A DNA stretch of 64,000 bases from Candidatus Magasanikiibacteriota bacterium (GTDB lineage: Bacteria > Patescibacteriota > Patescibacteriia > Magasanikbacterales > GWA2-37-8). Under the pieces are notes generated by a model. That model made no database searches. It saw only the letters and a program-made list of their open reading frames with translations, and had not been told where the DNA came from. The position numbers and the translations under genes are program-made. Within the stretch, counting starts at the first letter, position 1. Each line of letters opens with the position of its first letter. The DNA is taken from positions 1,164-65,163 of the forward strand of contig JAUSEN010000008.1 in assembly GCA_030650025.1 (NCBI GenBank), given 5' to 3'. Below are positions 857 through 62,175 of this stretch, one piece after another.

Positions 857-992
857 AATGGGGTCAGGCGCGAGCGAACTAAATTTTCCTGGTTTACGAT
901 AAGGAATTTGCACAAAAAATTATAATTACTAGGGGTGAGTCAAAAATAAGTTTACTTATTTTTGCGAAGCCCGACGTAATTTCAAGCTTCGC

Positions 993-2342
993 TTATAATA
1001 AACTATCATCCGCCGTCGGTTCTTTTACGCCACGGAAAACAACATCTATAATATTTTGGACGCCAAACTGGCGGCCATCCAAAAACCCACTCATGGCCGC
1101 TTCCGCTAGCCAGCCAGAGTTAACCCAGTCAAACAGCCACTCGGATGTATAACGAGGGTCGTTTTGGCTAATGCCCGCGCCAATGGTTTTAAGCCAAGTG
1201 CGGTTAAACACCTCCTGGCTACCAAGAGACGGCGCCATGATAATAGGAATGCCCAAGGCCGAATAAAACACCAACTCGCTCGGCTTTGTCCACAGGATGT
1301 CGGTCGAACGAAGGCTCTCGTTAAGAGCGCGGAAATAATCTTCTTTCTGAAGAGCAAAAATAATTTGTAAATTTTTCCCAAAAACTTTTTCTAAGCCATA
1401 ATTGCTAATGGCCTCGCGAAAATAACAATAAACATCATTGCGCGTGCCGGCTACTAAATTCACATTTATTTCGTTGGCTAACAATTTTTGACGCAGACTC
1501 CACAGCATCTGGCGGCCAATCTTTTTTTGCGCGCCCGCGCCGCCGACCGCGAAAGCCAAGGTCAGAGGGTGGTGGTGCCGCTCTTCTATTTTTATATTTT
1601 TCAAAAAATTCTTGATTGTCTCCGCGTACTTGTGGCGGTAACGGTGTTCCGGATCTAAATTAATCAAACGCTCGGCCAAATCACGCTGGAGCGTATCAAG
1701 ACCCGAGCCGCCGTCCAAATTTTCTTCTGGGAGAGGGAACCCGGTTAAAAATATATTATCTGGTTTAACGCCATAAAGCTTAAGGCGCTCTACCACCCGC
1801 CGGCACGGCGCCAGATACTTAATCCGGCTCTTTTTAGGGTGGAGCGGCGCCCAGGTACGGCTAATATCCGAATCGCAAATTACTAAATAAATATCGTTTT
1901 TAAAATCATGCTCCTCGGCCATAAAGGCGGCGGTAAAAAAAGTGGTAATCAGGGGAATGTTTTTAGTATTTAAAAGCTTTATTAAATCTTTGCCCGAGCC
2001 GCGTTTAATAATGTAATAATTCTGACGAATTTGCAAATTGGGGGCCGAGAGATCCCGCCGTGGATAAAACGCCGGCACTTCTTGAAATTTGTCCATTAAA
2101 CCAAACAGCCACCCGCCAATGAAGGGCACGTTGGACAGGCGAGAAAAAGTCTCATACAAGCGCTGGGTGGCTTGCCAGCCGCGGTATTCTTTTTTCGAGA
2201 TGCCTTCGTAATTATTGGCGTTAATAACCTTGCCGGTCGGCGATAAATGCCGGAGCGGGTACGCCGCCCGCTGGTGGCCATAACCCATGTCAACCACCAC
2301 CACCCAGGCTTCGTGATTAGAATTTTTCTGCTCCATATTCAT
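993..2342 (-). CDS. GT-B fold glycosyltransferase, MurG/UgtP/MGDG-synthase-like (GT28-type)
   Basis: N-terminal VVVVDMGYGHQRAA (G-x-G-H nucleotide-sugar loop). C-terminal IPIIMAPSLGSQEVFNRTWL resembles the MurG/UgtP C-domain motif. Family call is by motif only. Confidence 0.5.
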   Translation of the reverse strand: MNMEQKNSNHEAWVVVVDMGYGHQRAAYPLRHLSPTGKVINANNYEGISKKEYRGWQATQRLYETFSRLSNVPFIGGWLFGLMDKFQEVPAFYPRRDLSAPNLQIRQNYYIIKRGSGKDLIKLLNTKNIPLITTFFTAAFMAEEHDFKNDIYLVICDSDISRTWAPLHPKKSRIKYLAPCRRVVERLKLYGVKPDNIFLTGFPLPEENLDGGSGLDTLQRDLAERLINLDPEHRYRHKYAETIKNFLKNIKIEERHHHPLTLAFAVGGAGAQKKIGRQMLWSLRQKLLANEINVNLVAGTRNDVYCYFREAISNYGLEKVFGKNLQIIFALQKEDYFRALNESLRSTDILWTKPSELVFYSALGIPIIMAPSLGSQEVFNRTWLKTIGAGISQNDPRYTSEWLFDWVNSGWLAEAAMSGFLDGRQFGVQNIIDVVFRGVKEPTADDSLL

Positions 2343-2350
2343 AATCTCAG

Positions 2351-2442
2351 TGTCATCTTGAGGCGAAGCCGAAAGATCTAAGCGTTATTAATTTTCGAAC
2401 GTCGCTTAGATTCTTCTCCGCCTGCGGCGGATCAGAATGACA
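2351..2442. mobile_element. 92-bp MITE-like element with TGTCAT...ATGACA terminal inverted repeats and an internal AGATCTAAGCG/CGCTTAGATCT inverted repeat
   Basis: tgtcatcttgaggcgaagccgaaagatctaagcg...cgcttagattc...cagaatgaca. A related fragment is at 38873-38906, and the same TGTCAT termini occur at 21090-21193. Confidence 0.5.
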
Positions 2443-2449
2443 AAAAATA

Positions 2450-3154
2450 TTAAAATTTAACTCTTTTATTTACCGCCCACAAAAAACCCATGCGCTTATC
2501 AAATTTAGAGGGAAAAATTCGCACGCCAAAACCATGCTCTCGCATTTTCCGCTCTATCCACTCGTAATTATTTTGCCCATAATTATGATACTCCATGATA
2601 ATGGCCCCAATATTCCCAAAATCTTCAGGAGTCGCGCCGGCAAAAACTTCATACTCGCCGCCCTCAATATCCATTTTAATTAGCGCCAATTTTCCTGATT
2701 GCGAAAATTTAATCAAATCTGCCAAACTATAAACTTTTACCGGGATCTCGCCCTCATTTAATTTACCGCGCTTGGATAAAAGCAGTTCGTGATTATGGCT
2801 ATCCGGTGAGAGCTTTAAGACGCCCTCCCCGCTGGCGCGCGCCAGCGCGCCCGCCACTATCCTTACACCGCTAATATTATTCTCGTTCAAATGCTTTTTT
2901 AAAAAAATTAAATTATTCGCTTCCGGCTCCAGAGCCGCCACTTCAACAGCCGGATTAATTGCCTTGGCATACAACGTAAAAAAACCCGCGTGCGCGCCCA
3001 CATCCGCGATGGCAAATTTTGCCTTCTCTATCACCGCCGCGCAAATTCGGTATTCCTCTAACTTAAAAATCTCGGCTACAACGCTTTTGTCCGCTTCGTC
3101 TCTTGTGTAAATAACCAAACTTCGGCCTCTAAATTTAATCAGGCTTTTTTGCAT
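2450..3154 (-). CDS. FkbM-family SAM-dependent methyltransferase
   Basis: DVGAHAGFFT (FkbM DiGAniG motif) and MDIEGGEYEVF (KiDvEGaE motif). Start set at the internal ATG at 3154. Confidence 0.7.
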   Translation of the reverse strand: MQKSLIKFRGRSLVIYTRDEADKSVVAEIFKLEEYRICAAVIEKAKFAIADVGAHAGFFTLYAKAINPAVEVAALEPEANNLIFLKKHLNENNISGVRIVAGALARASGEGVLKLSPDSHNHELLLSKRGKLNEGEIPVKVYSLADLIKFSQSGKLALIKMDIEGGEYEVFAGATPEDFGNIGAIIMEYHNYGQNNYEWIERKMREHGFGVRIFPSKFDKRMGFLWAVNKRVKF

Positions 3155-3189
3155 ATTAGTATTATAGCAGAATAACAAAAACAAAAAAA

Positions 3190-3227
3190 GACCGCCGGTT
3201 AAGGTGGTCTTTTGTGATAATTCTAGT
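3190..3227 (-). terminator. Intrinsic terminator after rpsI
   Basis: Minus strand: AAGACCACCttaaCCGGCGGTCTT hairpin followed by TTTTTGTTTTTG. Confidence 0.6.
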
Positions 3228-3635
3228 TTAGCGTTTGCTCCACTGCGGGCCGCGGCGGGCTTTTTTGAGGCCGGGTTTCTTGCGTTCTTTAATGCGGGCG
3301 TCTCGCGTCAAAAACCTCTGCGTCTTCATGGTTTTGCGCCAGTCTTCATTCCAAATCACCAAGGCGCGCGCGATCCCAAGCTGAACCGCTTCGGCCTGGC
3401 CATGCTTGCCGCCGCCCACCACTTTAGCGGAAATATCCAAATCTTTTTCTTTCGCCACTGCTTTTAAAGGCGACATCACTAAACTTTGCAAAGTAAAATG
3501 CGGAAAATACTTGTTCAATTCTTCGCCATTGATAGTAATTTTTCCAGAACCTTTAGTGAGACGCACGCGCGCCGACGCTCGCTTCCGGCGACCGACAGTC
3601 TGCAAACGATCTTTGGATCCAATAATCTTAGTCAT
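3228..3635 (-). CDS. rpsI: 30S ribosomal protein S9
   Basis: Product ends ...LKKARRGPQWSKR; clear S9 family sequence. Confidence 0.95.
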   Translation of the reverse strand: MTKIIGSKDRLQTVGRRKRASARVRLTKGSGKITINGEELNKYFPHFTLQSLVMSPLKAVAKEKDLDISAKVVGGGKHGQAEAVQLGIARALVIWNEDWRKTMKTQRFLTRDARIKERKKPGLKKARRGPQWSKR

Positions 3636-3666
3636 ATTATTTATTCTGATTTATTCGAAATCATCA

Positions 3667-4026
3667 TTATTTAACAAATCGCAAACGCTTCAAACGCGCG
3701 GTGCGGAACTTATTGCGCGGGAGCATTTTAGAAACCGCGTGCTTAATAACAAACTCGGGCTTTTCACGAATAACCATGTTAGCCGGAATTTCCTTAAGCC
3801 CGCCCGGGTGCATGGAATGATGGCGATAAACTTTTTGCGCCGCCTTCTTGCCGGTAAACACCGCCTGGTCAGCATTGGTTACTGTAACGCGGTCACCCAT
3901 ATCCCACTGCGGAACATAGCTAACTTTATGCTTGCCAATTAAAATTTGGGCAATCTGTGTTGCTAAGCGCCCGGGAGTATTACCAGCCGCATCAAGAGCG
4001 ATTGTTTTACGAGAAACTCGAGACAT
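3667..4026 (-). CDS. rplM: 50S ribosomal protein L13
   Basis: MSRVSRKTIALDAAGNTPGRLATQIAQIL...; typical L13. Confidence 0.95.
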   Translation of the reverse strand: MSRVSRKTIALDAAGNTPGRLATQIAQILIGKHKVSYVPQWDMGDRVTVTNADQAVFTGKKAAQKVYRHHSMHPGGLKEIPANMVIREKPEFVIKHAVSKMLPRNKFRTARLKRLRFVK

Positions 4027-4032
4027 AATTAT

Positions 4033-4383
4033 TTAGATAAATTCTATCACGGCTGTCTGGCTGCCATCCCCTTTACGCGGGCCGAGCATGGTCAACCTGG
4101 TGTAGCCGCCTTTCCGATCTTTATAGCGTGGGCCCAAAACTTCCATCAGCTTCTTGACAGCTTTATCAGTATGGAGATCAGCCCGGAGCAGGCGGCGAGC
4201 CGCCAGCGTATTATTCTTGGCCGACGTTACCAGCCTTTCCACTCGGCTCTGCGCGGCTTTCGCTTTCGCCTTGGTAGTTTTAATTTTTTCGTGCAAAATC
4301 AAGCTCTCGGCCAAATTGCGAAGCAAGGCCGTGCGCGGCCCAACCTTCCGATCTAGAGTAATTTTCTTTTTTTGATGCCGCAT
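4033..4383 (-). CDS. rplQ: 50S ribosomal protein L17
   Basis: MRHQKKKITLDRKVGPRTALLRNLAESLILHEKIKTT... matches the L17 N-terminus. Start trimmed to the ATG at 4383; the track ORF extends into the shared leader repeat. Confidence 0.9.
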   Translation of the reverse strand: MRHQKKKITLDRKVGPRTALLRNLAESLILHEKIKTTKAKAKAAQSRVERLVTSAKNNTLAARRLLRADLHTDKAVKKLMEVLGPRYKDRKGGYTRLTMLGPRKGDGSQTAVIEFI

Positions 4384-4430
4384 ACGATTTGACAAAATCG
4401 TGCCGCGCAATGTCCTTTGAAGCGCGGCGC
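4384..4430 (-). promoter_or_regulatory. Conserved two-hairpin 5' leader motif directly abutting the rplQ start codon
   Basis: Minus strand reads GCGCCGCGC-TTCAAAGGACATT-GCGCGGCAC (hairpin 1), then CGATTT-TGTC-AAATCG (hairpin 2), then T-ATG. A near-identical copy is upstream of rpsM and a compensated copy upstream of mraZ. TAAATTAAATAAT lies just 5'. Confidence 0.5.
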
Positions 4431-4442
4431 AAATTATTTAAT

Positions 4443-5288
4443 TTACTTCTTGCTTGCCTTTTTAACCTTGGCTTTCGCTTTCTTTTCCTTTTTTTCTGTT
4501 TTAGCGGCCTCTTCATCCGGGCTAGCCTCTTCAGCGGTTATTTCGGGAATAGCGGCGGCCTCCACTGTTTCGCGCGTGAATACTTCCGTGGCGCTAGCTT
4601 GTTCCACTGACTCGGAAATTACCGTAAAATGATCCATCAATATTTGCGTAGCCTGACGCAAAGCTTCACGCGGGCTGATTGTACCGTTGGTTTCGATATT
4701 AATAGTCAATTTCTCGTAGTTAGTGATGTCGCCAACGCGAGTGTACTCCACGTGATAACCAACATCCTTAACCGGTGTATAGACTGAATCTACCACCATA
4801 GTGCCAAGGTCATAATTCTTGCGATCTTTTTCCTCAACCGGCCTATAACCACGGCCTTTGCCAACCACAATTTCCATTTCGAAAATTTTGTTGCTTGTTA
4901 AATTGCAAATCACTAAATTCTTGTTAGCCACTTCCACGTCCGAATTCTTTTCAATATCCGCGGCTGTCACCGGGCCTGGGCCTTTTTTTACCAAATTCAA
5001 TTTGACCGGCTCGTCCGAAAATACTTTCACTGCCAGTTGCTTTAAATTAAGCATTATTTCCACGATATCTTCCTTCACGCCTTCGGCCGTGGTAAATTCG
5101 TGCTCGACGCCTTTGATTTTAAAATATTCTACCGCCGAACCCGGGAGAGAGGACAATAAAACGCGGCGATAAGCATTGCCAAGCGTCGTGGCGTAGCCAT
5201 GATAACACGGCATCACCACCACGGAACCAAGGCTCGGTGTGTCGCCTTCAAAAAATTCGATTTTAGATGGCAAGAGAAAATTTTCCAT
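4443..5288 (-). CDS. rpoA: DNA-directed RNA polymerase subunit alpha, N-terminal (assembly) domain only; no alpha-CTD
   Basis: Alpha-NTD is conserved through ...ALRQATQILMDHF. The protein then ends in a 45-aa acidic/Lys-rich tail (EEAAKTEKKEKKAKAKVKKASKK) instead of the ~80-aa alpha-CTD. Confidence 0.9.
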   Translation of the reverse strand: MENFLLPSKIEFFEGDTPSLGSVVVMPCYHGYATTLGNAYRRVLLSSLPGSAVEYFKIKGVEHEFTTAEGVKEDIVEIMLNLKQLAVKVFSDEPVKLNLVKKGPGPVTAADIEKNSDVEVANKNLVICNLTSNKIFEMEIVVGKGRGYRPVEEKDRKNYDLGTMVVDSVYTPVKDVGYHVEYTRVGDITNYEKLTINIETNGTISPREALRQATQILMDHFTVISESVEQASATEVFTRETVEAAAIPEITAEEASPDEEAAKTEKKEKKAKAKVKKASKK

Positions 5289-5324
5289 ATGGCTTTAAAT
5301 TTACCCTCCCTAAAATTGGGAAAA

Positions 5325-5933
5325 TTAACGTGAATAAAAACCGATGATGGCGTTCGCATCAAAATTAGGCAATTCCACGGTCGGCAGATTCAAAACTTTT
5401 GCCGAGAGTTTAGTGGCGTCAACATTGACCCAAGCCGGTAAATCTTTTTTAGCGATAGTCTCGGATAAATCCGTAAATAATTTGCTCTTTTTGGCAGGCT
5501 CGGCCACGGCGACAATTTCGCCAACGCGCACTCGGTACGACGGAATATCGAGCTTTTTGCCATTAACCGTGATATGGCCGTGGGAAACGGCTTGGCGCGC
5601 CGCGGCTCGCGAAGGCGCGAACCCCGCGCGATACGCCACATTGTCCAAACGAGATTCCAAATATTGCACCAAAAATTTACTGGTATCACCGGTTTTTTTG
5701 GAAGCCTCGGCCACATAATTAGAAAACTGCTTTTCTAAAATACCGTACAACTTTTTGGCTTTTTGCTTTTCGCGCAACTGCTTGCCAAAAGAAGAGAGTT
5801 TGGCGCGCTTCCTCGCTAAGCCGTGCTGGCCAGAGGGAAAATTGCGTTTCATTACCGGGCATTTTGGGCTATCGCAAAGCTTCTCGCCCCACAGGCGGCA
5901 AAGTTTATGTTTCGGTCCAATTAATCGTGCCAT
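5325..5933 (-). CDS. rpsD: 30S ribosomal protein S4
   Basis: MARLIGPKHKLCRLWGEKL... C4 zinc-type S4 N-terminus; S4 domain ...GHITVNGKK. Confidence 0.95.
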   Translation of the reverse strand: MARLIGPKHKLCRLWGEKLCDSPKCPVMKRNFPSGQHGLARKRAKLSSFGKQLREKQKAKKLYGILEKQFSNYVAEASKKTGDTSKFLVQYLESRLDNVAYRAGFAPSRAAARQAVSHGHITVNGKKLDIPSYRVRVGEIVAVAEPAKKSKLFTDLSETIAKKDLPAWVNVDATKLSAKVLNLPTVELPNFDANAIIGFYSR

Positions 5934-5957
5934 GCAATCTATTAATTATTATTTAAA

Positions 5958-6401
5958 TTAAACGCGCCGTCTCTTCGGCGGGCGGCAACCATTGTGTGGA
6001 ATAGGAGTCACATCCGCAATTCCCAAGATATTCAAACCATTGGCATGAAGCGCGCGGATCGCGGATTCGCGGCCGCCGCCAATACCTTTAACAAATACCG
6101 ACACTTCTTTAACATTATATCCGGCAATCTTGGTGAGCAAATCTTTCACTACCATGCTGGCGGCATACGGCGTGGCTTTCTTCGGGCCTTTAAAACCAGA
6201 GACGCCCGCGCTGGACCAGCCCAAAACATTGCCATTCGGATCAGTAATTGTAATAATAGTGTTATTAAAAGTGGCTTGCACGTAAGCGTTGCCTCGCGGC
6301 ACTTGGCGCGACACTGTTTTCTTTTTCACAACCTTAACCGGAGCGCCGGCCGCGGGCGCAGCGTTATTGCTGGCGGTTGGTTTTAAATTTTGTTCAGCCA
6401 T
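5958..6401 (-). CDS. rpsK: 30S ribosomal protein S11
   Basis: ...[30 protein letters not shown]...KRRRV; typical S11. Confidence 0.95.
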
Positions 6402-6406
6402 ATTTA

Positions 6407-6793
6407 TTAAGTTTTTTGCCCGTCGGGTTTGCGGCCGCTACCCATGGTCTTGCGAACATTGCCCCTAACCGTGCGGGAGTTAGTTTTGGTGCGCTGGCCG
6501 CGAACTGGCAAATGCTTCATGTGGCGAATGCCGCGGTAGCTCTTGGTATCTTTCAAAGTTTTGATATTACTCATTATTTCGCGGCGCAAATCGCCTTCGG
6601 TCTTAAAATTCTTCTCAACATATGCCCGCAGGGTATCTTCTTGTTCATTGGTCAAATCCTTGGTGCGGATATTGCCGTCAATCTTAGTAGCCACTAAGAT
6701 TTTTTTTGCCAGCGTTGCGCCAATGCCAAAAATATAACGCAGTGAAAACTCGATCTTCTTTTCCTCTGGTATGTTAGTACTGGCAATACGCAT
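6407..6793 (-). CDS. rpsM: 30S ribosomal protein S13
   Basis: [25 protein letters not shown]... Start trimmed to the ATG at 6793; the track ORF extends into the leader repeat. Confidence 0.9.
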
Positions 6794-6840
6794 ACGATTT
6801 AACAAAATCGTGCCGCGCAATGTCCTTTGAGGCGCGGCGC
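6794..6840 (-). promoter_or_regulatory. Second copy of the two-hairpin leader motif, abutting the rpsM start
   Basis: GCGCCGCGCC-TCAAAGGACATT-GCGCGGCAC-GATTTTGTTAAATCG-T-ATG. TTAGATTAAATTAA lies immediately 5'. Confidence 0.5.
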
Positions 6841-7592: not shown

Positions 7593-7629
7593 GTAGGGGC
7601 ATGGTCGCATGGGGCGACCTTGCCCCTAC
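7593..7629. repeat. Palindrome GTAGGGGCATG...CATGCCCCTAC overlapping the alaS stop; member of a recurring palindrome family
   Basis: gtaggggcatggtcgcatggggcgaccttgcccctac. The same arms flank GGGGCATGATATATCATGCCCC at 28788-28817 and 37235-37260. Confidence 0.5.
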
Positions 7630-11878: not shown

Positions 11879-13132
11879 TTATTTAATCACTCCCCCGCCT
11901 AAACACGCCCCGTTATTGTAAAACACCGCGAATTGCCCGGGCGTAACCGCGCGCTCTGGCTTTGCAAAATGAACGATAACGAGATTCCTCGTCGGCCTTC
12001 GGCCTCGCTCGGAATGACAACGAACAATGCACTCCTGCAATATCTGGCGATGGCGTAGGCGTACCTGGCATTTTAACGGAAATTGAGGTTTCTGACAAAT
12101 CCAATTAACGCCCGTAACCACAGCTTCTTTGGAAAACAAAAGCAGGTCATCTTCATAGCCAACAACCAATTCATTGGTTCTAATATTTTTAGCGACCACA
12201 TACAAAGGCCGATTCCCCTCTCCTTCGCAAAGGAGAGGGCGAGGGTGAGGACTCGCCAATCCCAAATGCCTCTGACCAATCGTATAAAACGCCAGACCAT
12301 CGTGTTTACCGACAACAATTCGCTGTAGGGGCGGGGTTACCCCGCCCTTACCGTACGACATTATAATCTTTCCCGGTTTATGTTTTATTCTTTTCTCCAA
12401 AAATTCTTTCATCGGCACTTCGCCAATAAAACAAATGCCCATGCTCTCGGCTTTATCCGCGACTGGCAAGCCAAATTTCTTAGCTAATTTCCTGACTTCT
12501 GGCTTAGTATATTCGCCCACGGGAAATAGAGTTTTAGATAACTGCTTCTGGTTTAGCTGGTGCAAAAAATATGTTTGGTCTTTATTTTTGTCTTTGGCTT
12601 CGAGAAGATGAACCAGACCTCCCCCAAACCCCTCCTTTGCGAAGGAGGGGGGTCGAGCTCCCTCTCCATCGCAATGGAGAGGGCGGGGGGTGAGGACTCG
12701 TCTCGCATAATGCCCGGTCGCCAAATAATCAAAACCCAATTCTTCTGCCTTTTTCAGCCAACTCCCAAATTTAATAAATTTATTGCACATCACATCCGGG
12801 TTCGGCGTCCGCCCCTGCCGGTATTCCGCGAACATGTAATCCAAAACATCGCGTTTATATTCTTTAACAAAATTCAGTTTCAAAATCGGAATATTTAATT
12901 GCGCGGCCACGCGCACAGCGTCGCGGTAATCCGGAACATAACAAGACTGCGTCTGTTGTAGTGGCCCGGCATGCCTGGCCACTACGTTTTCGCCGTCATC
13001 ATCGTAATTAATCATAAAAGCCGCCGTGACATTATATCCGGCTTTAACGAGGAGCGCGGCGGCTACGGCCGAGTCCACCCCACCACTAAGCGCCACTAAA
13101 ACTTTTATTTTTTTATTAAACTTTATTTTCAC
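11879..13132 (-). CDS. mnmA: tRNA 2-thiouridine(34) synthase MnmA carrying four in-frame palindromic-element insertions
   Basis: PP-loop SGGVDSAV, ...LATGHYARR..., KDQTYFL, YTIGQR, TPGQFAVFY. At 417 aa it is about 50 aa longer than canonical MnmA. The extra segments map exactly onto DNA palindromes; see findings. Confidence 0.9.
   Translation of the reverse strand: MKIKFNKKIKVLVALSGGVDSAVAAALLVKAGYNVTAAFMINYDDDGENVVARHAGPLQQTQSCYVPDYRDAVRVAAQLNIPILKLNFVKEYKRDVLDYMFAEYRQGRTPNPDVMCNKFIKFGSWLKKAEELGFDYLATGHYARRVLTPRPLHCDGEGARPPSFAKEGFGGGLVHLLEAKDKNKDQTYFLHQLNQKQLSKTLFPVGEYTKPEVRKLAKKFGLPVADKAESMGICFIGEVPMKEFLEKRIKHKPGKIIMSYGKGGVTPPLQRIVVGKHDGLAFYTIGQRHLGLASPHPRPLLCEGEGNRPLYVVAKNIRTNELVVGYEDDLLLFSKEAVVTGVNWICQKPQFPLKCQVRLRHRQILQECIVRCHSERGRRPTRNLVIVHFAKPERAVTPGQFAVFYNNGACLGGGVIK
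11981..12019. repeat. Half MITE-like element (GAGATTCCTCGTCGG-CCTTCGG-CCTCGCTCGGAATGACA) in-frame inside mnmA
   Basis: Encodes CHSERGRRPTRNL in MnmA. A reverse-complement copy is at 15666-15704, and an intergenic copy within 21090-21193. Confidence 0.6.
12215..12257. repeat. Palindrome CCCCTCTCCTTCGCAAAGGAGAGGG plus CGAGGGTGAGGACTCG tail, in-frame inside mnmA
   Basis: Encodes ...SPHPRPLLCEGEGNRPL.... A second, duplicated copy is at 12628-12704. Confidence 0.6.
12321..12344. repeat. Palindrome AGGGGCGGGGTAACCCCGCCC(C)T in-frame inside mnmA; identical in sequence to the intergenic terminator hairpin at 62143-62175
   Basis: Encodes GKGGVTPPLQ, inserted just before the conserved ...HDGLAFYTIGQR. 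Confidence 0.6.
12628..12704. repeat. Tandem palindromes CCCCTCCTTTGCGAAGGAGGGG and CCCTCTCCATCGCAATGGAGAGGG plus CGGGGGGTGAGGACTCG tail, in-frame inside mnmA
   Basis: Encodes RPLHCDGEGARPPSFAKEGFGGG, inserted between the conserved GHYARR and LLEAKDKNKDQTYFL. Confidence 0.6.
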
Positions 13133-14964: not shown

Positions 14965-16032
14965 TTAATTAGTAGTTCGATTTAAAGTCGTAATCGGCCG
15001 GCTCTGGGTGATATAAAATTTACTCCCGACTTTGGCCCATTCAATATCACAGGGGAAGCCATAATGCTTCTCAATATTTATAAAAATCTTAGCCGCTTCG
15101 ATAATTTCTTTGCCCGATAATTTTTGTTTTGTCCCTTCGCTCTCGCTAATATTTCCCCACTCATTGCGCTTCCCCTCTCCGCTATCTACTAACAAATCGC
15201 TTTTGGCGGAACGCGCCAACGCGTTCCCTACAAGTTTTTTTCCTACTAATTTTCGGGTCTGCGTCGCCACATTAATATCAAGAATGCTAAGCTCTGATTT
15301 ACTAACAATATAACTATCAGGAGTAATCTGACCGCCCACAATCGCTTCACCGAGGCCAAAACCGGCTTCTATTATCATCTGATCTCTGTCTTCGGTAACC
15401 GGATGCACGGTAAAAGCAATGCCTGACACTTCAGACTGTACCATAGTTTGCACTACCACCGCAACCGAAACATAGTGGTCGATTAAGTTCTTCTCGTGGC
15501 GGTAAAAAATTGCCCGAGGTGTGAATAGCGAAGACCAGCACTCTTTAACCCGCTCTACTACCTGCTCGGCTGGCGTATTTAAATATGTTTCCAGTTCCCC
15601 GGCCCAGCTCGCGACCGCCGAATCCTCCGCCGTCGCACTGCTCCGGACCGCCACCAAAAAATCATTGTCATTCCGAGCGAGGCCGGAGGCCGACGAGGAA
15701 TCTCCCGAAAGTTTAGCATGAGCTGCCAAAATTTCTACTTCTAAATCTTTGGGCATGGCATGGTCGTGAATCGCGTCCCGAATCACCGCGCTCGCTTTAT
15801 CAATCGAATTTACATCCGCCACGTTCACCTCTTTGAGCCGCGCACTAATTTCAGCATTCAAATCAGTTTCTTCTAAAAATCTATCAAAGGCGCTTGCGAG
15901 CACCACAAACCCGGGCGGGACAGGAATCCCGGTATTCGCCATCTCACCCAAACTGGCGCCTTTGCCACCCGCCTCGGCGACATTGTTTTTAGAAATTTCA
16001 TTGAAGAATTTTAGATGGGGCATACAACTCAA
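14965..16032 (-). CDS. PEP/pyruvate-binding (PPDK_N-type ATP-grasp nucleotide-binding) domain protein with an in-frame MITE insertion
   Basis: GGKGASLGEM ... GIPVPPGFVV ... FLVAVRSSATAED ... AG. The inserted segment SGDSSSASGLARNDND is encoded by the element at 15666-15704. Confidence 0.75.
   Translation of the reverse strand: MSCMPHLKFFNEISKNNVAEAGGKGASLGEMANTGIPVPPGFVVLASAFDRFLEETDLNAEISARLKEVNVADVNSIDKASAVIRDAIHDHAMPKDLEVEILAAHAKLSGDSSSASGLARNDNDFLVAVRSSATAEDSAVASWAGELETYLNTPAEQVVERVKECWSSLFTPRAIFYRHEKNLIDHYVSVAVVVQTMVQSEVSGIAFTVHPVTEDRDQMIIEAGFGLGEAIVGGQITPDSYIVSKSELSILDINVATQTRKLVGKKLVGNALARSAKSDLLVDSGEGKRNEWGNISESEGTKQKLSGKEIIEAAKIFINIEKHYGFPCDIEWAKVGSKFYITQSRPITTLNRTTN
15666..15704. 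repeat. Half MITE-like element (TGTCATTCCGAGCGAGGCCGGAGGCCGACGAGGAATCTC) in-frame inside the PPDK_N gene
   Basis: Reverse complement of the 11981-12019 family. Encodes SGDSSSASGLARNDND immediately before the conserved FLVAVRSSATAED. Confidence 0.6.
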
Positions 16033-16043
16033 AAATTAAAACC

Positions 16044-17459
16044 CTAAACCTTTTTTGCAGTACCCTTTACTGGATCAATCTCTACCAAATCTCCATTTTT
16101 AAATACTGTGGTCACGGTTTTCGTTCCAACAATGCATGGAATGTTTAATTCTCGGCTTGTAATAGCCGCATGCGAGGTGAGCCCACCGGTATCTGTTAAA
16201 ACTGCACAGGCCTTTTTCATAGCAAAAACATATTCCGGGCTAGTCATCGGCGCCACCAACACCTCACCTTCCTTAAAACTTTCTACCTTAGTTGGATCAA
16301 ATAAAATATGCACGACCCCCTTAATCATGGCGCCACTACCTTTACTCGCCACCGCCCCCCTTACTTCCGACGCTCCAACCGCAGATTTTTCTGTGCCATA
16401 CAAATTCCAATAAAAATCTACTTCCTGTGAGGATAATTCCCGGCAATCGTGGAAAAACCAAACGCCAAAACCATTGGCTCGTTTTTTTAATTCCTCGTGC
16501 AAATCTTGACCACTTATAATTTCGGCAATTTGATTATGCCACAAATTGTGTAACTCATCAAAACTATATTTATAACGACGCGCCACTTCGCTGGTCAAAA
16601 CATCAATATAATGCAAAATAATGAATATACTTTTTTTGCGTTCATCTTGCCACTCGATACCATACGTAATCGCCTTAGCTATAGCCATAATCTCTGGCGG
16701 TAAATTATATTGTGCTTGAAAACTGGCCTTGCGTTTAGCCGTTTCTGCTAATTTTGTTTTAACGTTACTTTCAAAATCAGTCGGGATTTCTTTTTTGTGT
16801 TCAGCAAACCAGGACTCAGACAAAATTTGGGTACCAGCATAGCTATTTTTTAACCAGTAAAATTGTTCAACGTGCTTTTTAAGATCGCTCGTGTTAACTA
16901 GGGCAATTTCTTCTTCCTGATAAAAAGAAATTTGCTCTGGCGCGGTTAACACTTCAAGAGCCGAACGCAATTCATCTTGGTCCGTAATAATAGGCTTTAA
17001 TTTTTCTGTCAGATACTCGGTCGAACCGTAATTTGCTAATTCGGGAATCGACCCAGCCACCCAAAATTTAAGATATAAATCATTAAAATTATTCCACAAC
17101 TTTAACAGCTCGCTATCGCTAGCAGCTGATAGTTTAAGCGAACCAATATGCTTTTCTAAGCTAGCGATCTCCCGATCATAACCCTGCCATTCTTTATATA
17201 TGCCCTCACGAGAAATCGAGGGTAACATGTACTTAACAAAAACTCGCTGCCCGGCCGCGACTACGTCTGGTGTGTTGTTAACCCAAAACGAACGACCGTC
17301 CTTAAACATCCATAAAGTCTCCGACCAATTTTCAGCAAACTTGGCACGAAAGGCTTGGTAGTGAGTCTCCACAAACGTAGAAACATACAAAAATTTGCCT
17401 GGCACTGGCCCCCAACGAAAAATATCGCCTTTGGAATCAAACGGAGTTTTATTTTGCAT
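16044..17459 (-). CDS. Protein with an unknown ~370-aa N-terminal domain and a C-terminal PEP-utilising-enzyme mobile (phosphohistidine swivel) domain
   Basis: C-terminus ...VLVAPMTSPEYVFAMKKACAVLTDTGGLTSHAAITSRELNIPCIVG carries the PEP-utilizers catalytic His motif. Overlaps the upstream HD gene by 11 nt. Confidence 0.7.
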   Translation of the reverse strand: MQNKTPFDSKGDIFRWGPVPGKFLYVSTFVETHYQAFRAKFAENWSETLWMFKDGRSFWVNNTPDVVAAGQRVFVKYMLPSISREGIYKEWQGYDREIASLEKHIGSLKLSAASDSELLKLWNNFNDLYLKFWVAGSIPELANYGSTEYLTEKLKPIITDQDELRSALEVLTAPEQISFYQEEEIALVNTSDLKKHVEQFYWLKNSYAGTQILSESWFAEHKKEIPTDFESNVKTKLAETAKRKASFQAQYNLPPEIMAIAKAITYGIEWQDERKKSIFIILHYIDVLTSEVARRYKYSFDELHNLWHNQIAEIISGQDLHEELKKRANGFGVWFFHDCRELSSQEVDFYWNLYGTEKSAVGASEVRGAVASKGSGAMIKGVVHILFDPTKVESFKEGEVLVAPMTSPEYVFAMKKACAVLTDTGGLTSHAAITSRELNIPCIVGTKTVTTVFKNGDLVEIDPVKGTAKKV

Positions 17460-21089: not shown

Positions 21090-21193
21090 TGTCATTTCGA
21101 CCCCGCCTCTGGCGGGGAGAAATCTCTATCACAATTGTGAAATGGACAGAGATTCCTCGTCGGTCGCCATAGGCGACCTCGCTCGGAATGACA
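21090..21193. mobile_element. About 104-bp MITE-like element with TGTCATT...AATGACA termini and two internal GC hairpins
   Basis: tgtcatttcgaCCCCGCCtctgGCGGGGagaaatctct...gagattcctcgtcGGTCGCCataGGCGACCtcgctcggaatgaca. Intergenic, between the coupling-ATPase and AMMECR1 genes. Confidence 0.55.
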
Positions 21194-28787: not shown

Positions 28788-28817
28788 AGTAGGGGCATGA
28801 TATATCATGCCCCTACT
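28788..28817. repeat. Perfect 30-nt palindrome AGTAGGGGCATGATATATCATGCCCCTACT
   Basis: Core GGGGCATGATATATCATGCCCC is identical to 37239-37260. No flanking T-run on either strand here. Confidence 0.6.
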
Positions 28818-36515: not shown

Positions 36516-36965
36516 CTAAACTCCTAGTTCCGCCATTTTTTCCGCGATCGCGTTGCTTTCAGCCTCGGTACGGCTCTTATAATGTTCCCACTCGGGTTTA
36601 GCCCAAATTTCTAAGCGGCTGTACAGCCCGGCAATAACTACTTCTTTTTTTAAACCGGCAAAAACTCGCAAATATTCCGGGAGCATGGCGCGACCCTGCT
36701 TATCAATCGGGATATCCATGGCGCCCGCTAGCATTAAACGCGCAAACGCGCGGCTATTAGCTTGAGCCATAGGGAGTGCGGCCAATTTCTCGGCGAGCTT
36801 ACCCCACTCGGCCTTGGTGAAAACAAACAAGCAATTATCAAGACCGCGGGTCACCACTGCCCCTTTTTTTAAGTCATTCCGGAATTTGGCGGGCAGGGCC
36901 ACACGCCCTTTATCGTCTAGCGTGTGCGAAAATTCTCCTATGAACATATGAATTGACGAATTCAT
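36516..36965 (-). CDS. mraZ: Transcriptional regulator MraZ
   Basis: Two MraZ repeats: ...MFIGEFSHTLDDKGRVALPAKFR... and ...DKQGRAMLPEYLR.... Start at the first ATG after the leader hairpin (36965). An alternative ATG at 36947 gives the canonical MFIGEF N-terminus. Confidence 0.85.
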   Translation of the reverse strand: MNSSIHMFIGEFSHTLDDKGRVALPAKFRNDLKKGAVVTRGLDNCLFVFTKAEWGKLAEKLAALPMAQANSRAFARLMLAGAMDIPIDKQGRAMLPEYLRVFAGLKKEVVIAGLYSRLEIWAKPEWEHYKSRTEAESNAIAEKMAELGV

Positions 36966-37036
36966 GCCCGATTCAACAGAATCGTGCCGAGCAGTGTCCT
37001 TTGAAGCTCGGCTCGCATTCCTTTGAAGCGCGGCGC
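36966..37036 (-). promoter_or_regulatory. Third, compensated copy of the two-hairpin leader motif (plus a partial tandem extra copy) abutting the mraZ start
   Basis: Minus strand: GCGCCGCGC-TTCAAAGGAATGCGA-GCCGAGC-TTCAAAGGACACT-GCTCGGC-AC-GATTCTGTTGAATCG-GGC-ATG. Stem 1 is GCCGAGC/GCTCGGC here versus GCGCCGCGC/GCGCGGCAC at rplQ and rpsM. The loop is conserved. Confidence 0.5.
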
Positions 37037-37234
37037 TAGTGAGTAAAGTAGTAAGACAAGCATTTTCACCACTCTTCCCCACTTATAACCATTTTACACC
37101 ACTTAAAAACACTAGTCAACACTTAAAACCAGAGTTATCCACAGTCCTTCGGTCGCCTAAGGCGACCTTCGGACTGCAAGCGCTTTTTTGCGTGTCTAAG
37201 ACGAATAATATGCGCAGACGATAAAATAAAAAAA

Positions 37235-37260
37235 CAGGGGCATGATATATCATGCCCCTG
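37235..37260. terminator. Bidirectional intrinsic terminator (CAGGGGCATGATATATCATGCCCCTG) downstream of the MBL-fold gene
   Basis: Perfect palindrome flanked by AAAAAAA 5' and TGAATTTTTTTATT 3'. The minus strand reads hairpin plus TGTTTTTTTATTTT. Confidence 0.7.
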
Positions 37261-37296
37261 TGAATTTTTTTATTCTCTAAAACAAGTTAATAATTT

Positions 37297-38715
37297 TTAG
37301 ACCCTAACCTCTAAGCCCACGTTTACCACTGTGGCTTTCACCCCCAAATCCTCGGTTATTCTTTTGGCGAGAGCTTCCGAAGCCACCGGGTCGCCGTGGT
37401 TTAAATAAACCTTTTTTGGAGTCGTAGCGCCTCCGCCAATCCAATCAAGGAGTTTATCCTGATCGCCGTGCGCGGACAGCGCTCCCACCATTTTTACTTT
37501 GCATCTTACCTCGACTCTCTCGCCAAGTATGTCTACAAAACGCTGGCCGTCCACAATTTTCCGCCCCAGCGTCCCTGCGGACTGGTAGCCAATGATGAGC
37601 AAAGTATTTTTGGGGTCTGACAAATAGCGCAGAGCGTGGAACACAATGCGCCCGCCGTTCATCATACCCGCGCCCGCGATAATAATTTTACAACCCGGCG
37701 TGTGGTTAATCTTCATGGATTCTTCGCGCAAATGAGTGAGCGTGAGGCCGGGAAAATTAAATAAATCATCGCCCGCTTTAAAATATTTAGCGGCTTCAGC
37801 GTCGTAATACTCGGGATATTTTTCGTAAACTTTAATAGCATCAATTGCCAAAGGCGAATCTAAAAAAATCGGAACCCGAGGCAGTTTCTTCTTACGGTCA
37901 ATCAAATCATTTAATTCATATAATAACTCTTGAGTGCGCTCGAGCGAAAAAGACGGAATCATAACCACGCCACCCCGCTCTATCCCCTCGCGAATCATAT
38001 TTTCGATTACTTCTTGCCGCTCGTGCACACTCTCGTGCAAGCGATTGCCATATGTCGATTCGCAAATCAGGGCGTCTAGCCCCCCGGGCAATTTTTCGGT
38101 ATCACGGAGTATCGGCACCTCAACGTTGCCGACGTCCCCACTAAACACAATTCGCTTCCCCTCACCGGCAATTTCAATAAACGCCGAACCAAAAATATGC
38201 CCCGCGTCGTGAAACTTAACGACAACCTCACCACTAGTGTCATTCCCGCGTAAGCGGGAATCTAACTCTCTTGACTTCAAGATCCCCGCTTTCGCGGGGA
38301 TGACAATCTCCTCTCCATATTCCACTCCCACAAACATGCTCATCACGCTAGCGATGTCGCTCTCTGCATACAAAATTGGCGTCTTTAATTTGCGATTGTT
38401 ATAAGTCATGACGTTGAGCGCGTCGTCCAAAATTAGCTGCGCCAGCTCCACGGTTGGTTTGGTCGCGTAAATCTTGCCCGCAAAACCATTTTTCGTTAAG
38501 AGCGGCAAACGCCCCACGTGGTCCAAATGCGCGTGGGTCACAAACACGGCCGCGATGGCTTTGTGATCATACCCGAGCGGTTCTGAATTTCTCTTCTCAA
38601 TTTCCGGACTGCCCTGATGCAGGCCACAATCAACCAAAAACTTCTGGCCGCCAACCTCAATCATACTATTAGAACCCGTCACTTCCCGCGCCGCCCCAAA
38701 AAACGTAATTTTCAT
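37297..38715 (-). CDS. MBL-fold metallo-hydrolase (beta-CASP / RNA-metabolising type) with an in-frame MITE insertion
   Basis: HxHxDH motif VFVTHAHLDHVGRLP; ...FHDAGHIFGSAFIEI.... The inserted segment IPAKAGILKSRELDSRLRGNDTSGE is encoded by the element at 38239-38305. Confidence 0.75.
   Translation of the reverse strand: MKITFFGAAREVTGSNSMIEVGGQKFLVDCGLHQGSPEIEKRNSEPLGYDHKAIAAVFVTHAHLDHVGRLPLLTKNGFAGKIYATKPTVELAQLILDDALNVMTYNNRKLKTPILYAESDIASVMSMFVGVEYGEEIVIPAKAGILKSRELDSRLRGNDTSGEVVVKFHDAGHIFGSAFIEIAGEGKRIVFSGDVGNVEVPILRDTEKLPGGLDALICESTYGNRLHESVHERQEVIENMIREGIERGGVVMIPSFSLERTQELLYELNDLIDRKKKLPRVPIFLDSPLAIDAIKVYEKYPEYYDAEAAKYFKAGDDLFNFPGLTLTHLREESMKINHTPGCKIIIAGAGMMNGGRIVFHALRYLSDPKNTLLIIGYQSAGTLGRKIVDGQRFVDILGERVEVRCKVKMVGALSAHGDQDKLLDWIGGGATTPKKVYLNHGDPVASEALAKRITEDLGVKATVVNVGLEVRV
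38239..38305. repeat. Complete ~67-bp MITE-like element (TGTCATTCCCGCGTAAGCGGGAATC...GATCCCCGCTTTCGCGGGGATGACA) inserted inside the MBL-fold CDS
   Basis: TGTCAT/ATGACA termini. Two internal hairpins: ATTCCCGCgtaaGCGGGAAT and ATCCCCGCtttcGCGGGGAT. The host ORF remains open. Confidence 0.6.
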
Positions 38716-43275: not shown

Positions 43276-43291
43276 AATACCCCGTCATTGC

Positions 43292-43320
43292 GAGCCCCCG
43301 ACGCAGTCGGGGCAAAGCAA
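43292..43320 (+). terminator. Possible intrinsic terminator after lepA
   Basis: CCCCGACgcaGTCGGGG hairpin followed by CAAAGCAATTTTT. Weak T-run spacing. Preceded by a GTCATTGCGAGC MITE-like end. Confidence 0.35.
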
Positions 43321-43356
43321 TTTTTAAAAATTATAATTAATTTCTCAAATTTACTT

Positions 43357-55768: not shown

Positions 55769-56686
55769 GTGATTCTAAATAAACAAATTATGAATTCCCC
55801 AGAAAATCAACTTAAAAAAAGCGGGTTAGTAACATTGGTTGGGCGCTCGAACGTCGGCAAATCCACCCTCTTAAATACCATCATTGGCACCAAAATTGCG
55901 GCCGTTACCGACAAACCTCAAACTACCAGAAACGCTATCCATGGCGTTTTAAACCGGCCTGCCTCGCCGGCAGGCGGGCCAGAAGGCCAGGCAGTTTTTA
56001 TTGACACCCCCGGTGTTTTTAAAAACCACTCTTCTCCGCTTTCTGGCGCTCTCCTCGAGCATGTGCAAGAATCTATTAAACACATTGATTTAATTGTTTA
56101 CGTGGTCGACCCTACTAAACCAATTGGCAGTGAAGAGCGTTATATCATGTCTTTAATACGCAACATCGAAGTTCCCAAAATTTTAGTCATCAACAAAAGC
56201 GATATTCATGAAAAGGAAAAAGAATTTCTAGAAGATTACAAAAGCCTTGGCGATGATTTTGCCGCCGTATTTGAATTGTCGGCTTTGCGCGCCCGCCACA
56301 TTGAACCCTTGATTCAAAAAGTTTTAGAATTACTACCAGTAGGCGAACCACTCTACCCGCCGGATCAACTCACTAATATCGACAAGAACTTCTGGGTGGC
56401 CGAACTAATCCGCGAAAAAATATTTCTAGCCTTGCGCAAAGAAGTGCCATATTCTACGCACGTCGAAGTGGAGAACATTGAAGATAAAACTGATATTTTT
56501 GTCGTCAAAGCGCGCGTTTTAACCTATAACAAAAAATATAAAGAAATGATTATTGGTAAAGGCGGCCGCGCCATTAAAGAAATTGGCATCGCCGCGCGCA
56601 AAGAACTGGAACAAGCTTTAGGTAAAAAAGTATATTTAGAGCTCGAAGTGGAGTATGACCGCCACTGGATCGATCGCGTCGCTTAA
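55769..56686 (+). CDS. era: GTPase Era, with a small in-frame GC-palindrome insertion in the G-domain
   Basis: G1 LVGRSNVGKST; G3 DTPG; G4 NKSD; C-terminal KH domain. The extra segment NRPASPAGGPEGQ before DTPG is encoded by the palindrome CCGGCCTGCCtcgccGGCAGGCGGGCC at 55961-55987. Confidence 0.9.
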   Translation: MILNKQIMNSPENQLKKSGLVTLVGRSNVGKSTLLNTIIGTKIAAVTDKPQTTRNAIHGVLNRPASPAGGPEGQAVFIDTPGVFKNHSSPLSGALLEHVQESIKHIDLIVYVVDPTKPIGSEERYIMSLIRNIEVPKILVINKSDIHEKEKEFLEDYKSLGDDFAAVFELSALRARHIEPLIQKVLELLPVGEPLYPPDQLTNIDKNFWVAELIREKIFLALRKEVPYSTHVEVENIEDKTDIFVVKARVLTYNKKYKEMIIGKGGRAIKEIGIAARKELEQALGKKVYLELEVEYDRHWIDRVA

Positions 56687-57621: not shown

Positions 57622-57716
57622 TGGGCAGAGCGGTCGCCTCAAGCGATCGCTCTGCCCCACCTGTAGTATCATCAAAAACAAAATCCCCTGAGCCTAGTCG
57701 AAGGGGAATTTTTTTA
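57622..57716. terminator. Two consecutive hairpins ending the M23 island. The distal one (ATCCCCTGAgcctagtcgAAGGGGAAT plus T-run) is a bidirectional terminator shared with ctpA.
   Basis: GGTGGGCAGAGCGgtcgcctcaagcgatCGCTCTGCCCCACC, then CCCCTgagcctagtcgaAGGGG plus AATTTTTTTATTTT. The minus strand has the same hairpin plus ATTTTGTTTTT. Confidence 0.6.
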
Positions 57717-62133: not shown

Positions 62134-62142
62134 ATATAGGGG

Positions 62143-62175
62143 CGGGGTTACCCCGCCCCTATATTTATTTTAAAA
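62143..62175. terminator. Bidirectional intrinsic terminator between rnh-like (+) and metK (-)
   Basis: TAGGGGCGGGGTTACCCCGCCCCTA followed by TATTTATTTT. The same palindrome occurs inside mnmA at 12321-12344. Confidence 0.7.

Follow-up and report, generated by a model that had tools for sequence, protein, structure and literature searches.

Rickettsia palindromic elements (RPEs) are palindromic repeats that lie in frame within unrelated functional housekeeping genes (Ogata et al. 2000, summarised in PMC10969869). Repetitive extragenic palindromes (REPs) of the GTAG and CGTC types are also found within genes of Opitutus, Rickettsia, Xanthomonas and Thioalkalivibrio, where dimers that encode 20-30 aa are common (Di Nocera et al. 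2013, PMC3733652). Different REPs occupy the same site of orthologous recB genes in Xanthomonas (PMC3733652). [quoted passage not shown] Hairpin repeats and coding palindromes are found in frame in mitochondrial genes of Nematomorpha (PMC6649704) and placozoans (PMC7813641). No report of such intragenic repeats, or of REPs, in the candidate phyla radiation (CPR, Patescibacteria) was found in the literature searched, which does not prove that they are unpublished. The window analysed here is a 64-kb stretch (64,000 nt, positions 1,164 to 65,163 of contig JAUSEN010000008.1, assembly GCA_030650025.1) of a Candidatus Magasanikbacteria metagenome-assembled genome (MAG). An RPE-like outcome is supported in it: repeated palindromic DNA lies in frame in the still-functional mnmA gene of a CPR bacterium.

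The host gene was identified from its open reading frame (ORF), Pfam domains and a PDB match.

11879..13132, minus strand: mnmA (tRNA 2-thiouridine(34) synthase), 417 aa, hosting five in-frame inserts

The ORF comprises 417 codons without a stop. It matched all three MnmA Pfam domains (PF03054 with E=1e-70, PF20259 and PF20258) and the solved MnmA structures 2hma, 9hlv and 2der (E about 1e-81 to 1e-72). Protein P0001, an annotated MnmA on a 101-kb contig of a Candidatus Magasanikbacteria MAG, is 100% identical. The 120 best homologues were used as the orthologue set (about 53-69% identical, 342-464 aa, those with a source name being Patescibacteria). The PP-loop SGGVDS and the catalytic cysteines C116 and C234 are invariant in their alignment. 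An AlphaFold2 model built on the same set had a mean predicted local distance difference test score (pLDDT) of 87 and a predicted template modelling (TM) score of 0.87, with 303 residues at a pLDDT of at least 90. The modelled core gave a target-normalised TM score of 0.89 against 2hma and 2det. With its catalytic motifs invariant and its core fold confidently predicted, the gene product is expected to stay functional.

Five inserts were located in the gene. They are numbered after the sites at which the orthologues differ in length, and the families named here are described below.

12953..12985, minus strand: insert S0 (aa 50-60, VVARHAGPLQQ), a gap against PDB MnmA, with the palindrome GTAGTGGCCAGGCATGCCGGGCCACTAC at 12958-12985
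12620..12697, minus strand: insert S1 (aa 146-171), an inverted doublet made up of two family-A units; 78 bp, 26 codons
12320..12349, minus strand: insert S2 (aa 262-271, KGGVTPPLQR), with the palindrome GTAGGGGCGGGGTTACCCCGCCCTTAC at 12325-12351 in plus-strand reading
12215..12257, minus strand: insert S3 (aa about 293-305, ASPHPRPLLCEGE), a single family-A unit of head GAGTCCTCACCCTCG and hairpin CCCTCTCCTTTGCGAAGGAGAGGG
11981..12019, minus strand: insert S5 (aa 372-384, CHSERGRRPTRNL), the 39-bp family-C element TGTCATTCCGAGCGA-GGCCGAAGGCC-GACGAGGAATCTC

When the protein was compared with Streptococcus pneumoniae MnmA using HMMER, the unmatched segments were aa 50-60, 146-171, 263-272, part of 291-305 and 373-380. 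At every one of them the DNA holds a palindrome or repeat unit. All five inserts are in frame and without a stop. Together they total 219 nt with a GC content of 65%, compared to 44% for the remainder of mnmA and 47% for the window region overall. The low-confidence stretches of the AlphaFold2 model are exactly the inserts, with a pLDDT of 47-74, and they form coil between strands (E143-148/E173-178, E254-258/E273-277, 288-310 and E366-372/E385-394).

The S0 palindrome runs GTAGTGGCC...GGCCACTAC, with a stem of 9 and a loop of 10, and stands opposite an 11-aa gap in the S. pneumoniae protein. Its minimum free energy (MFE) as RNA is -19.7 (z -4.2) and its GC content is 64%. Insert S1 leaves a 26-aa gap against PDB MnmA and has a pLDDT of about 47, between strands E143-148 and E173-178. 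Its first unit consists of the head CCTCACCCCCC and a hairpin at 12660-12683, and its second of a hairpin at 12629-12650 and the tail GGGGGAGG. The doublet folds as a single long hairpin (MFE -51.5, z -3.9), and its termini are only imperfectly inverted-repeat (GTCCTCACCCC...GGGGGAGGTCT). Insert S2 corresponds to a 10-aa gap against PDB MnmA and forms 11 pairs with 1 mismatch (MFE -20.6, z -3.3). The S3 hairpin at 12216-12239 has a perfect 9-10 bp stem, and its 53-nt context is not exceptional as an RNA fold (z -1.1). Between the S3 unit and the first unit of the S1 doublet, 36 of 39 positions agree, and the tail GGGTGAGGACTCG is common to S1 and S3. The hairpins of S0, S2 and S3 have 9-11 pairs and MFE values of -20 to -21 kcal/mol. 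The S5 element is 13 codons long and stop-free in five of its six frames.

Strong GC-rich hairpins were defined by at least 9 pairs and at most 1 mismatch. Ten were present in the window, and five of these lay inside mnmA, which makes up 2% of it (binomial P = 7e-7). No matches to the element patterns were expected in shuffled sequence. A terminator scan in and around mnmA gave 2 hits against a shuffled expectation of 2.2. The only hit inside any insert was a weak 6-pair stem from the head of the S3 unit. The insert palindromes themselves were not scored as terminators since they lack a trailing T-run, and their identity as intrinsic terminators was rejected. No Rfam family was found over the whole window at the gathering threshold, and a tRNA/tmRNA scan found none.

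A first-pass annotation of the sequence had described an intact mnmA of 417 aa with four in-frame palindromic inserts in a CPR-like background. The gene and the background hold, and all four inserts are there and in frame; the total is five, S0 having been missed. Its element (i) is the S1 doublet with both hairpins and the tail GGGTGAGGACTCG, and its element (ii), S3, is indeed a second copy of the same unit. Element (iii), S2, had been called identical to an intergenic terminator. The relationship is real, with the sequences near-identical (21/22) and not identical, and the palindrome had been placed about 5 nt away from 12325-12351. The position 11981-12019 given for element (iv), S5, was exact, while its description as a palindrome was too strong.

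By their sequence, the inserts come from at least three families of 28-78 bp, designated A, G and C. All three have copies elsewhere; those of G and C lie in the window's intergenic DNA, for the most part as hairpins resembling terminators, and in other genes.

Family A has the pattern CCTCACCCC + CCCTCTCC-loop-GGAGAGGG, and mnmA holds one inverted doublet and one single unit of it. The hairpin core was found in more than 120 metagenome stretches. In 81 of the 126 metagenome copies listed, the head CTCA[CT]CC stands a few bases upstream of the hairpin, as it does in mnmA. Most of the listed copies come from contigs with a GC content of 60-74%, on which spurious long ORFs are so frequent that the spanning of these copies by ORFs is uninformative. 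Family A therefore occurs across very different genomic backgrounds in metagenomes.

Family G has the pattern GTAG(G/T)GGC...GCC(C/A)CTAC (GTAGGGGC...GCCCCTAC), with two members within mnmA. Five copies were counted in the window. S2 is the sole intragenic copy, and the other four are intergenic and terminator-like.

62136..62162, no strand assigned: intergenic family-G palindrome ATAGGGGCGGGGTTACCCCGCCCCTAT, terminator-like, between convergent genes, the nearest relative of S2
7593-7629, 28789-28816 and 37234-37261: further intergenic family-G copies

S2 and the palindrome at 62138-62159 match at 21 of 22 positions, and the flanks around the intergenic copy (62126-62172) are AT-rich. The S0 palindrome is a family-G relative. 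Its closest match, GTAGGGGCAAGGCATGCCTTGCCCCAAC, lies in frame in an AMMECR1 gene (locus L124, 6851-6878) of the Magasanikbacteria MAG that encodes orthologue P0005. GTAG opens S0 and S2, as well as two of family G's four intergenic copies, with a mirrored CTAC at the opposite end. It is absent from families A and C, and the mirrored GTAG may simply be stem sequence.

Family C has the pattern TGTCATTCCGAGCGA-hairpin-GACGAGGAATC, and its 39-bp block is exactly TGTCATTCCGAGCGAGGCCG[A/G]AGGCCGACGAGGAATCTC. One of the three window copies is intergenic, and a relative was also found.

15666..15704, plus strand: second family-C copy, 38/39 identical, in frame in the PPDK_N gene 14965..16032(-) and opposite in orientation to it, peptide GDSSSASGLARND
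21151..21193, minus strand: third family-C copy in the window, intergenic, with arms unchanged and a different central hairpin (GGTCGCCTATGGCGACC)
43284..43321, plus strand: intergenic family-C relative GTCATTGCGAGC-CCCCGACGCAGTCGGGG-CAAAGCAAT

The PPDK_N copy lies 3.7 kb from the mnmA copy and is an insertion relative to the PEP synthase 8a8e. In a scan of 185,579 species genomes, a set without the source MAG, the exact 39-mer had only two copies elsewhere. Both are intragenic and in frame: Magasanikbacteria RIFOXYC2_FULL_42_28 carries it in a TsaE-like ORF, and a MAG binned as Gammaproteobacteria in the gene of a UvrD/PcrA-like helicase. The 39-mer is thus known from four places in three genomes, all in-gene and in frame (mnmA, PPDK_N, TsaE-like and UvrD-like). 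The flanks of the four copies are unrelated and share no flanking duplication. Shorter family-C relatives of 26-27 bp were present in 34 stretches of IMG/VR viral contigs. A BLAST search of the family-A and family-C units against PLSDB plasmids gave no match.

Further in-frame hairpins were found in a gene for a beta-CASP RNase.

38242..38301, minus strand: pair of in-frame hairpins, ATTCCCGCGTAAGCGGGAAT and ATCCCCGCTTTCGCGGGGAT, within the beta-CASP RNase gene 37297..38715(-), peptide VIPAKAGILKSRELDSRLRGNDT

They encode VIPAKAGI...SRLRGND and give the protein about 30 extra residues compared to RNase TTHA0252. Insertion is therefore not restricted to mnmA.

Some other loci with units of these kinds were recorded. 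On IMGVR_UViG_3300011270_000240 (L150), a contig classified as viral, the 27-bp family-C unit occurs four times within 4.9 kb, each time followed by AACGCG; the contig is a phage rich in repeats or else a wrongly classified fragment. The TsaE-like ORF of RIFOXYC2_FULL_42_28 (L001, 1747-2337) has about 50 extra residues (VIPNERGDISHSTVIPSEPRGDEGSPSGDNWDRDSSSAFGLARND) in a 196-aa protein, which resemble a stack of several family-C-type units within a single loop. A small hairpin family, GGTCGCCT(A/T)(A/T)GGCGACC, occurs at 317-338, 37146-37167 and 21157-21178. The first two are intergenic, and the third forms the centre of the intergenic family-C element at 21151-21193, a sign that one hairpin may be nested in another. 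In era (55769-56686) a GC-rich hairpin CCGGCCTGCCTCGCCGGCAGGCGGG at 55954-55978 encodes NRPASPAGGPEG within the GTPase domain. That domain is about 10 aa longer than its Pfam profile, making this a candidate further in-frame insert.

Length differences among the MnmA orthologues concentrate at seven sites, S0 to S6. Expansion at one or more of these was seen in 107/120 orthologues and at none of them in 13/120. Insert-free relatives are 342-356 aa long and are scattered among insert-bearing ones in the tree. With five sites occupied, the window mnmA is among the five most loaded. The inserted peptides include CHSERS.., SFRAERS.., VIPAKAGIQ, DSRLHGND, PLPALSFAKER, SPLLRRGGG and LPLVRGEG, which are typical repeat translations in various frames and orientations. 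Different elements are found at the same loops in other orthologues, and hairpins were confirmed in the inserts of seven further orthologues from their DNA. Across eight CPR loci the hairpin density was 0.80 per kb in mnmA compared to 0.084 per kb in the surrounding 155 kb.

Two comparisons bear on movement. Orthologue P0004 carries a hairpin of the S3 family at the same loop and reads it as ALSFAKERV, where the window reads RPLLCEGEG. The difference in frame implies independent insertion. A compound element of about 90 bp (80/88 nt identical) is present in loop S1 of P0002 mnmA and in loop S3 of P0004 mnmA, and also in frame in the PPDK_N gene of the P0002 genome. In P0002 and P0004 it bears clear terminal inverted repeats, AGACCTCTCC...GGAGAGGTCT. 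Its presence at different loops in two orthologues points to mobility. The first-pass annotation had expected the segments to fall in loops, the palindromes to be non-unique and their presence to vary among orthologues. The model, the family copies in the window, other CPR genomes, metagenomes and viral contigs, and the orthologue comparison agree with it on these points.

Site S1 of P0005 mnmA (L124, 10473-10508) holds an AT-rich 36-nt perfect palindrome, AACAATTAACAAATCGATTGCTCGTTGTTAATTGTT, with a stem of 12. The palindromes that colonise loops in CPR mnmA are thus not only GC-rich.

The preferred explanation, given a probability of about 75%, is that mnmA of this Magasanikbacteria genome has been colonised by short GC-rich hairpin repeats through REP/MITE-like copying, filtered by selection and translated as loop extensions. 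Element copies would arise in a REP/MITE-like manner, through an enzyme that works in trans and is encoded outside the window. Selection would remove insertions in essential genes that shift the frame, add a stop or hit a structured region. An insertion could survive where its length is a multiple of three, its reading frame is stop-free and the added 10-26 residues fall at a solvent-exposed turn. All five mnmA inserts have these properties, and the same seven loops are reused across the phylum. The inserts would be translated as disordered loop extensions while MnmA keeps working. Insert S5 probably goes back to an old insertion that the members of a clade have in common, and its arms have stayed almost the same in nucleotide sequence. 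The likeliest cause of that identity would be gene conversion by other copies or renewed insertion at this site.

Several observations weigh against this explanation. Pfam analysis of the 57 window ORFs found no transposase and no domain resembling Y1 or the REP-associated tyrosine transposase (RAYT), and no target-site duplications were recognised. The closest orthologue is only 63% identical, which leaves no near-isogenic empty site, and mobility is inferred from the distribution of the elements. Family-A-type hairpins are confined to mnmA in the window and in the 10-kb neighbourhoods of five of the seven orthologue loci, which random insertion plus selection does not obviously predict. A second, slightly divergent family-A-type copy lies in the PPDK_N gene of the P0002 genome. 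The remaining points concern S5. It is only weakly palindromic (RNA fold z -0.5). All its carriers have it at one codon position, with orientation and frame unchanged, and so it looks inherited rather than repeatedly jumped. The carriers are the window, P0002-P0005, P0009 and scattered lineages such as P0065, P0102, P0052 and P0019, and the clade of the window is uniformly positive. Inheritance does not explain why its nucleotides are conserved. Among seven orthologues the pairwise identity is 95-96% for the arms TGTCATTCCGAGCG and GAGGAATC, compared to 41-50% for the 30-nt coding flanks. The centre is variable, being GGCCGAAGGCC in the window, GTCCCGCAAAGCGGGAC in P0004 and (GAGCG)n-like in others. 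With arm codons invariant and synonymous flank sites scrambled, protein-level selection cannot be the cause; gene conversion, same-site re-insertion or nucleic-acid selection must be involved.

A bolder proposal is tentative and rather doubtful. It holds that Patescibacteria have an active process with sequence specificity, be it gene conversion, homing-like re-insertion, or uptake- or binding-sequence drive, that keeps widely distributed elements of 26-80 nt uniform, has preferred targets such as mnmA, and makes these elements a main source of loop-length variation in CPR proteins. It is suggested by the 95% arm identity despite saturated synonymous sites, by identical 39-mers across MAGs and by the approximately ten-fold hairpin density of mnmA.

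Among the rival explanations the most durable, although improbable, is that the elements are functional nucleic-acid signals kept in mnmA for their role, by selection or a molecular drive, such as sites bound by a conserved protein, DNA-uptake-like motifs of naturally competent CPR cells, or mRNA-stabilising or pausing hairpins. The family-C arms are conserved at the nucleotide level at an orthologous site across deeply diverged genomes and the 39-mers are identical between MAGs. Families G and C are also intergenic, with G at gene ends, and the hairpins of mnmA are enriched roughly ten-fold over the eight loci. However, several unrelated families occupy the same loops, orientation and frame differ among sites, and 13 of the 120 orthologues do without any insert. 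The hairpins have no T-tract, were not scored as terminators and had no Rfam match.

The idea that the extra segments are vertically inherited, lineage-specific loops under protein-level selection, with no repeat insertion at all, fares somewhat worse and is judged unlikely. It draws on the uniform placement of the S5 peptide 'CHSER...RNP' in the window, P0002-P0005, P0009 and several other clades, and on the resemblance of the second half of S1 to P0006 at the same site. It does not account for segment DNA that turns up again, between flanks of no similarity, in unrelated genes and between genes, or for S5 arm codons that are near-invariant (95%, flanks 41-50%) beyond what protein-level selection gives. 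The insert-free orthologues are interspersed in the tree, and one element family at one loop is read in different frames. The first-pass annotation had set insertions against ancestral linkers. All the inserts belong to repeat families that have copies elsewhere, and for element (iv) a copy in another gene of the same genome already speaks against the linker view. Element (iv) is probably an old insertion present throughout the sister clade.

Local origin of the palindromes by replication template switching (quasi-palindrome correction or hairpin-primed synthesis) is very unlikely. Perfect 9-10 bp stems with short loops are its classic product, and hairpins have originated by template switching in other systems (10.1101/2023.04.19.537475). 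The non-palindromic heads and tails, such as CCTCACCCC and TGTCATTCC, are nevertheless common to distant loci and other genomes. These shared non-palindromic flanks rule out such an origin for families A and C, and it is possible only for the variable central hairpins.

It is still less credible that the inserts are untranslated, being cut from the mRNA or skipped by the ribosome through programmed bypassing or as mini-introns. GC-rich hairpin inserts are bypassed in AT-rich coding sequences of some yeast mitochondria, and insertions occur in CPR rRNA genes. All five inserts are however multiples of three and stop-free, for which the chance by length alone is about (1/3)^5. The same in-frame constraint, to be expected only under translation, applies to the PPDK_N, beta-CASP RNase, TsaE-like and UvrD-like copies. 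Multiples of three throughout argue against RNA excision or ribosomal bypass, and an intein, intron or bypass was rejected on the in-frame constraint.

An assembly or binning artefact is the least probable of all: short repeats do break assemblies, and a same-strain Logan contig ends exactly at a copy of a 52-nt repeat (6820), but none of the five inserts breaks the frame, MAGs obtained independently in other studies have such inserts in the same loops, and the adjacent 5.9 kb (window 947-6820) is 100% identical in an independent assembly. Dataset SRR13727527 contains a 100% identical strain.

Pfam analysis of the 57 window ORFs indicated an ordinary CPR core region. The genes include rpsI, rplQ, rpoA, rpsD, rpsK, rpsM, alaS, DUF4153, mnmA, HD and a zinc-finger protein, then PPDK_N, PEP-utilizers, dnaB, recR, clpB, mraW, mraZ, murJ, lepA and recJ, and pyrG, era, metK and others. 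No insertion sequence (IS) elements were found in the 64-kb window. At 14965-17459 a PEP-synthase/PPDK-like function is divided between the PPDK_N ORF and a PEP-utilizers ORF. The same split arrangement adjoins mnmA at loci L123, L127 and L128, and the neighbourhood is therefore syntenic across these MAGs.

Other repeats were noted in the window. The 52-nt repeat is present at 4379-4430, 6789-6840 and 36963-37014, the second and third copies being 96% and 77% identical to the first. It is placed at the 5' ends of the rplQ, rpsM and mraZ ORFs, contains the palindrome CGATTTGACAAAATCG with a TTGACA motif, and may be a shared promoter or operator. The intergenic region at 140-370, beside greA, has three tandem units of about 90 bp, each ending GCTACCCGGGAATA(A/C)A. 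The last unit holds the hairpin GGTCGCCTAAGGCGACC, and the region had no tRNA or Rfam match. ORF 56884-57615 (Peptidase_M23) contains a block of very high GC content at 57005-57390 (windows of at least 75%), where long ORFs overlap on the two strands; the block may be DNA of recent acquisition. At 57623-57657 it is followed by the palindrome GGGCAGAGCGGTCGC...GCGATCGCTCTGCCC.

Selfish palindromes in frame in essential genes have been a textbook curiosity of Rickettsia and a few REP cases, to which the CPR is now added. Here the elements are much shorter, several families are stacked in one gene and seven loop hot spots recur over the 120 orthologues. Should the pattern prove general, the odd lengths and 'low-complexity' loops of CPR proteins would in part be accounted for. 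It would also warn annotators and structure predictors that such loops are repeat-derived, and it would provide a natural map of insertion-tolerant sites in MnmA. The arm conservation at orthologous sites raises the question of how repeats are kept up in tiny genomes without an obvious transposase.

Of the systems described at the outset, the mitochondrial coding palindromes share hairpin repeats in frame in conserved protein genes of a small genome. They are organellar and their sequences are unrelated, and in Nematomorpha the arms encode conserved segments and are not loop insertions. The window elements resemble MITEs as small non-autonomous repeats between and within genes, and the compound element of P0002 and P0004 has terminal inverted repeats. 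Most units are shorter than typical MITEs. Of the hallmarks of MITEs, neither target-site duplications nor a related autonomous IS was found in the window.

The likeness to RPEs lies in in-frame palindromic repeat DNA in housekeeping genes, in a peptide added where the fold allows, and in a host-dependent bacterium with a reduced genome as carrier. RPEs measure about 100-150 bp, have family-specific conserved peptides and are limited to Rickettsia, whereas the mnmA units are 28-78 bp and their families are widespread in metagenomes. Unlike in RPEs, one mnmA-insert family is read in several frames and orientations with varying peptides, and five inserts of at least three families share one 1.25-kb gene. 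The mnmA inserts behave like RPEs but, judged by size, host and peptide, are not RPE family members. The RPE-like behaviour first proposed thus stands for in-frame repeats in a working gene, and the units themselves are REP/MITE-like.

REPs are GC-rich imperfect palindromes of 20-40 bp found mostly downstream of genes. The mnmA hairpins are alike in size and GC content, and S0, S2 and S3 are short GC-rich imperfect palindromes in this range. Like REP inverted dimers, which encode 20-30 aa, the S1 doublet encodes 26 aa, and it folds as a long hairpin similar to the REP doublets called REPINs. Family G and S0 start with GTAG. The family-G palindromes have GTAG...CTAC at both ends, whereas REPs have a single-ended tag, and families A and C have other heads (CCTCACCCC, TGTCATTCC). 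In contrast to REPINs mobilised by RAYT, there is no RAYT/Y1 transposase within the 64-kb window. The extragenic share of window copies is 4/5 for family G, 1/3 for family C and 0 for family A (mnmA only). REP/REPIN membership is plausible for family G and the S1 doublet. By analogy, the mnmA inserts appear to work most like intragenic REPs and REP dimers, which are closer to them than RPEs.

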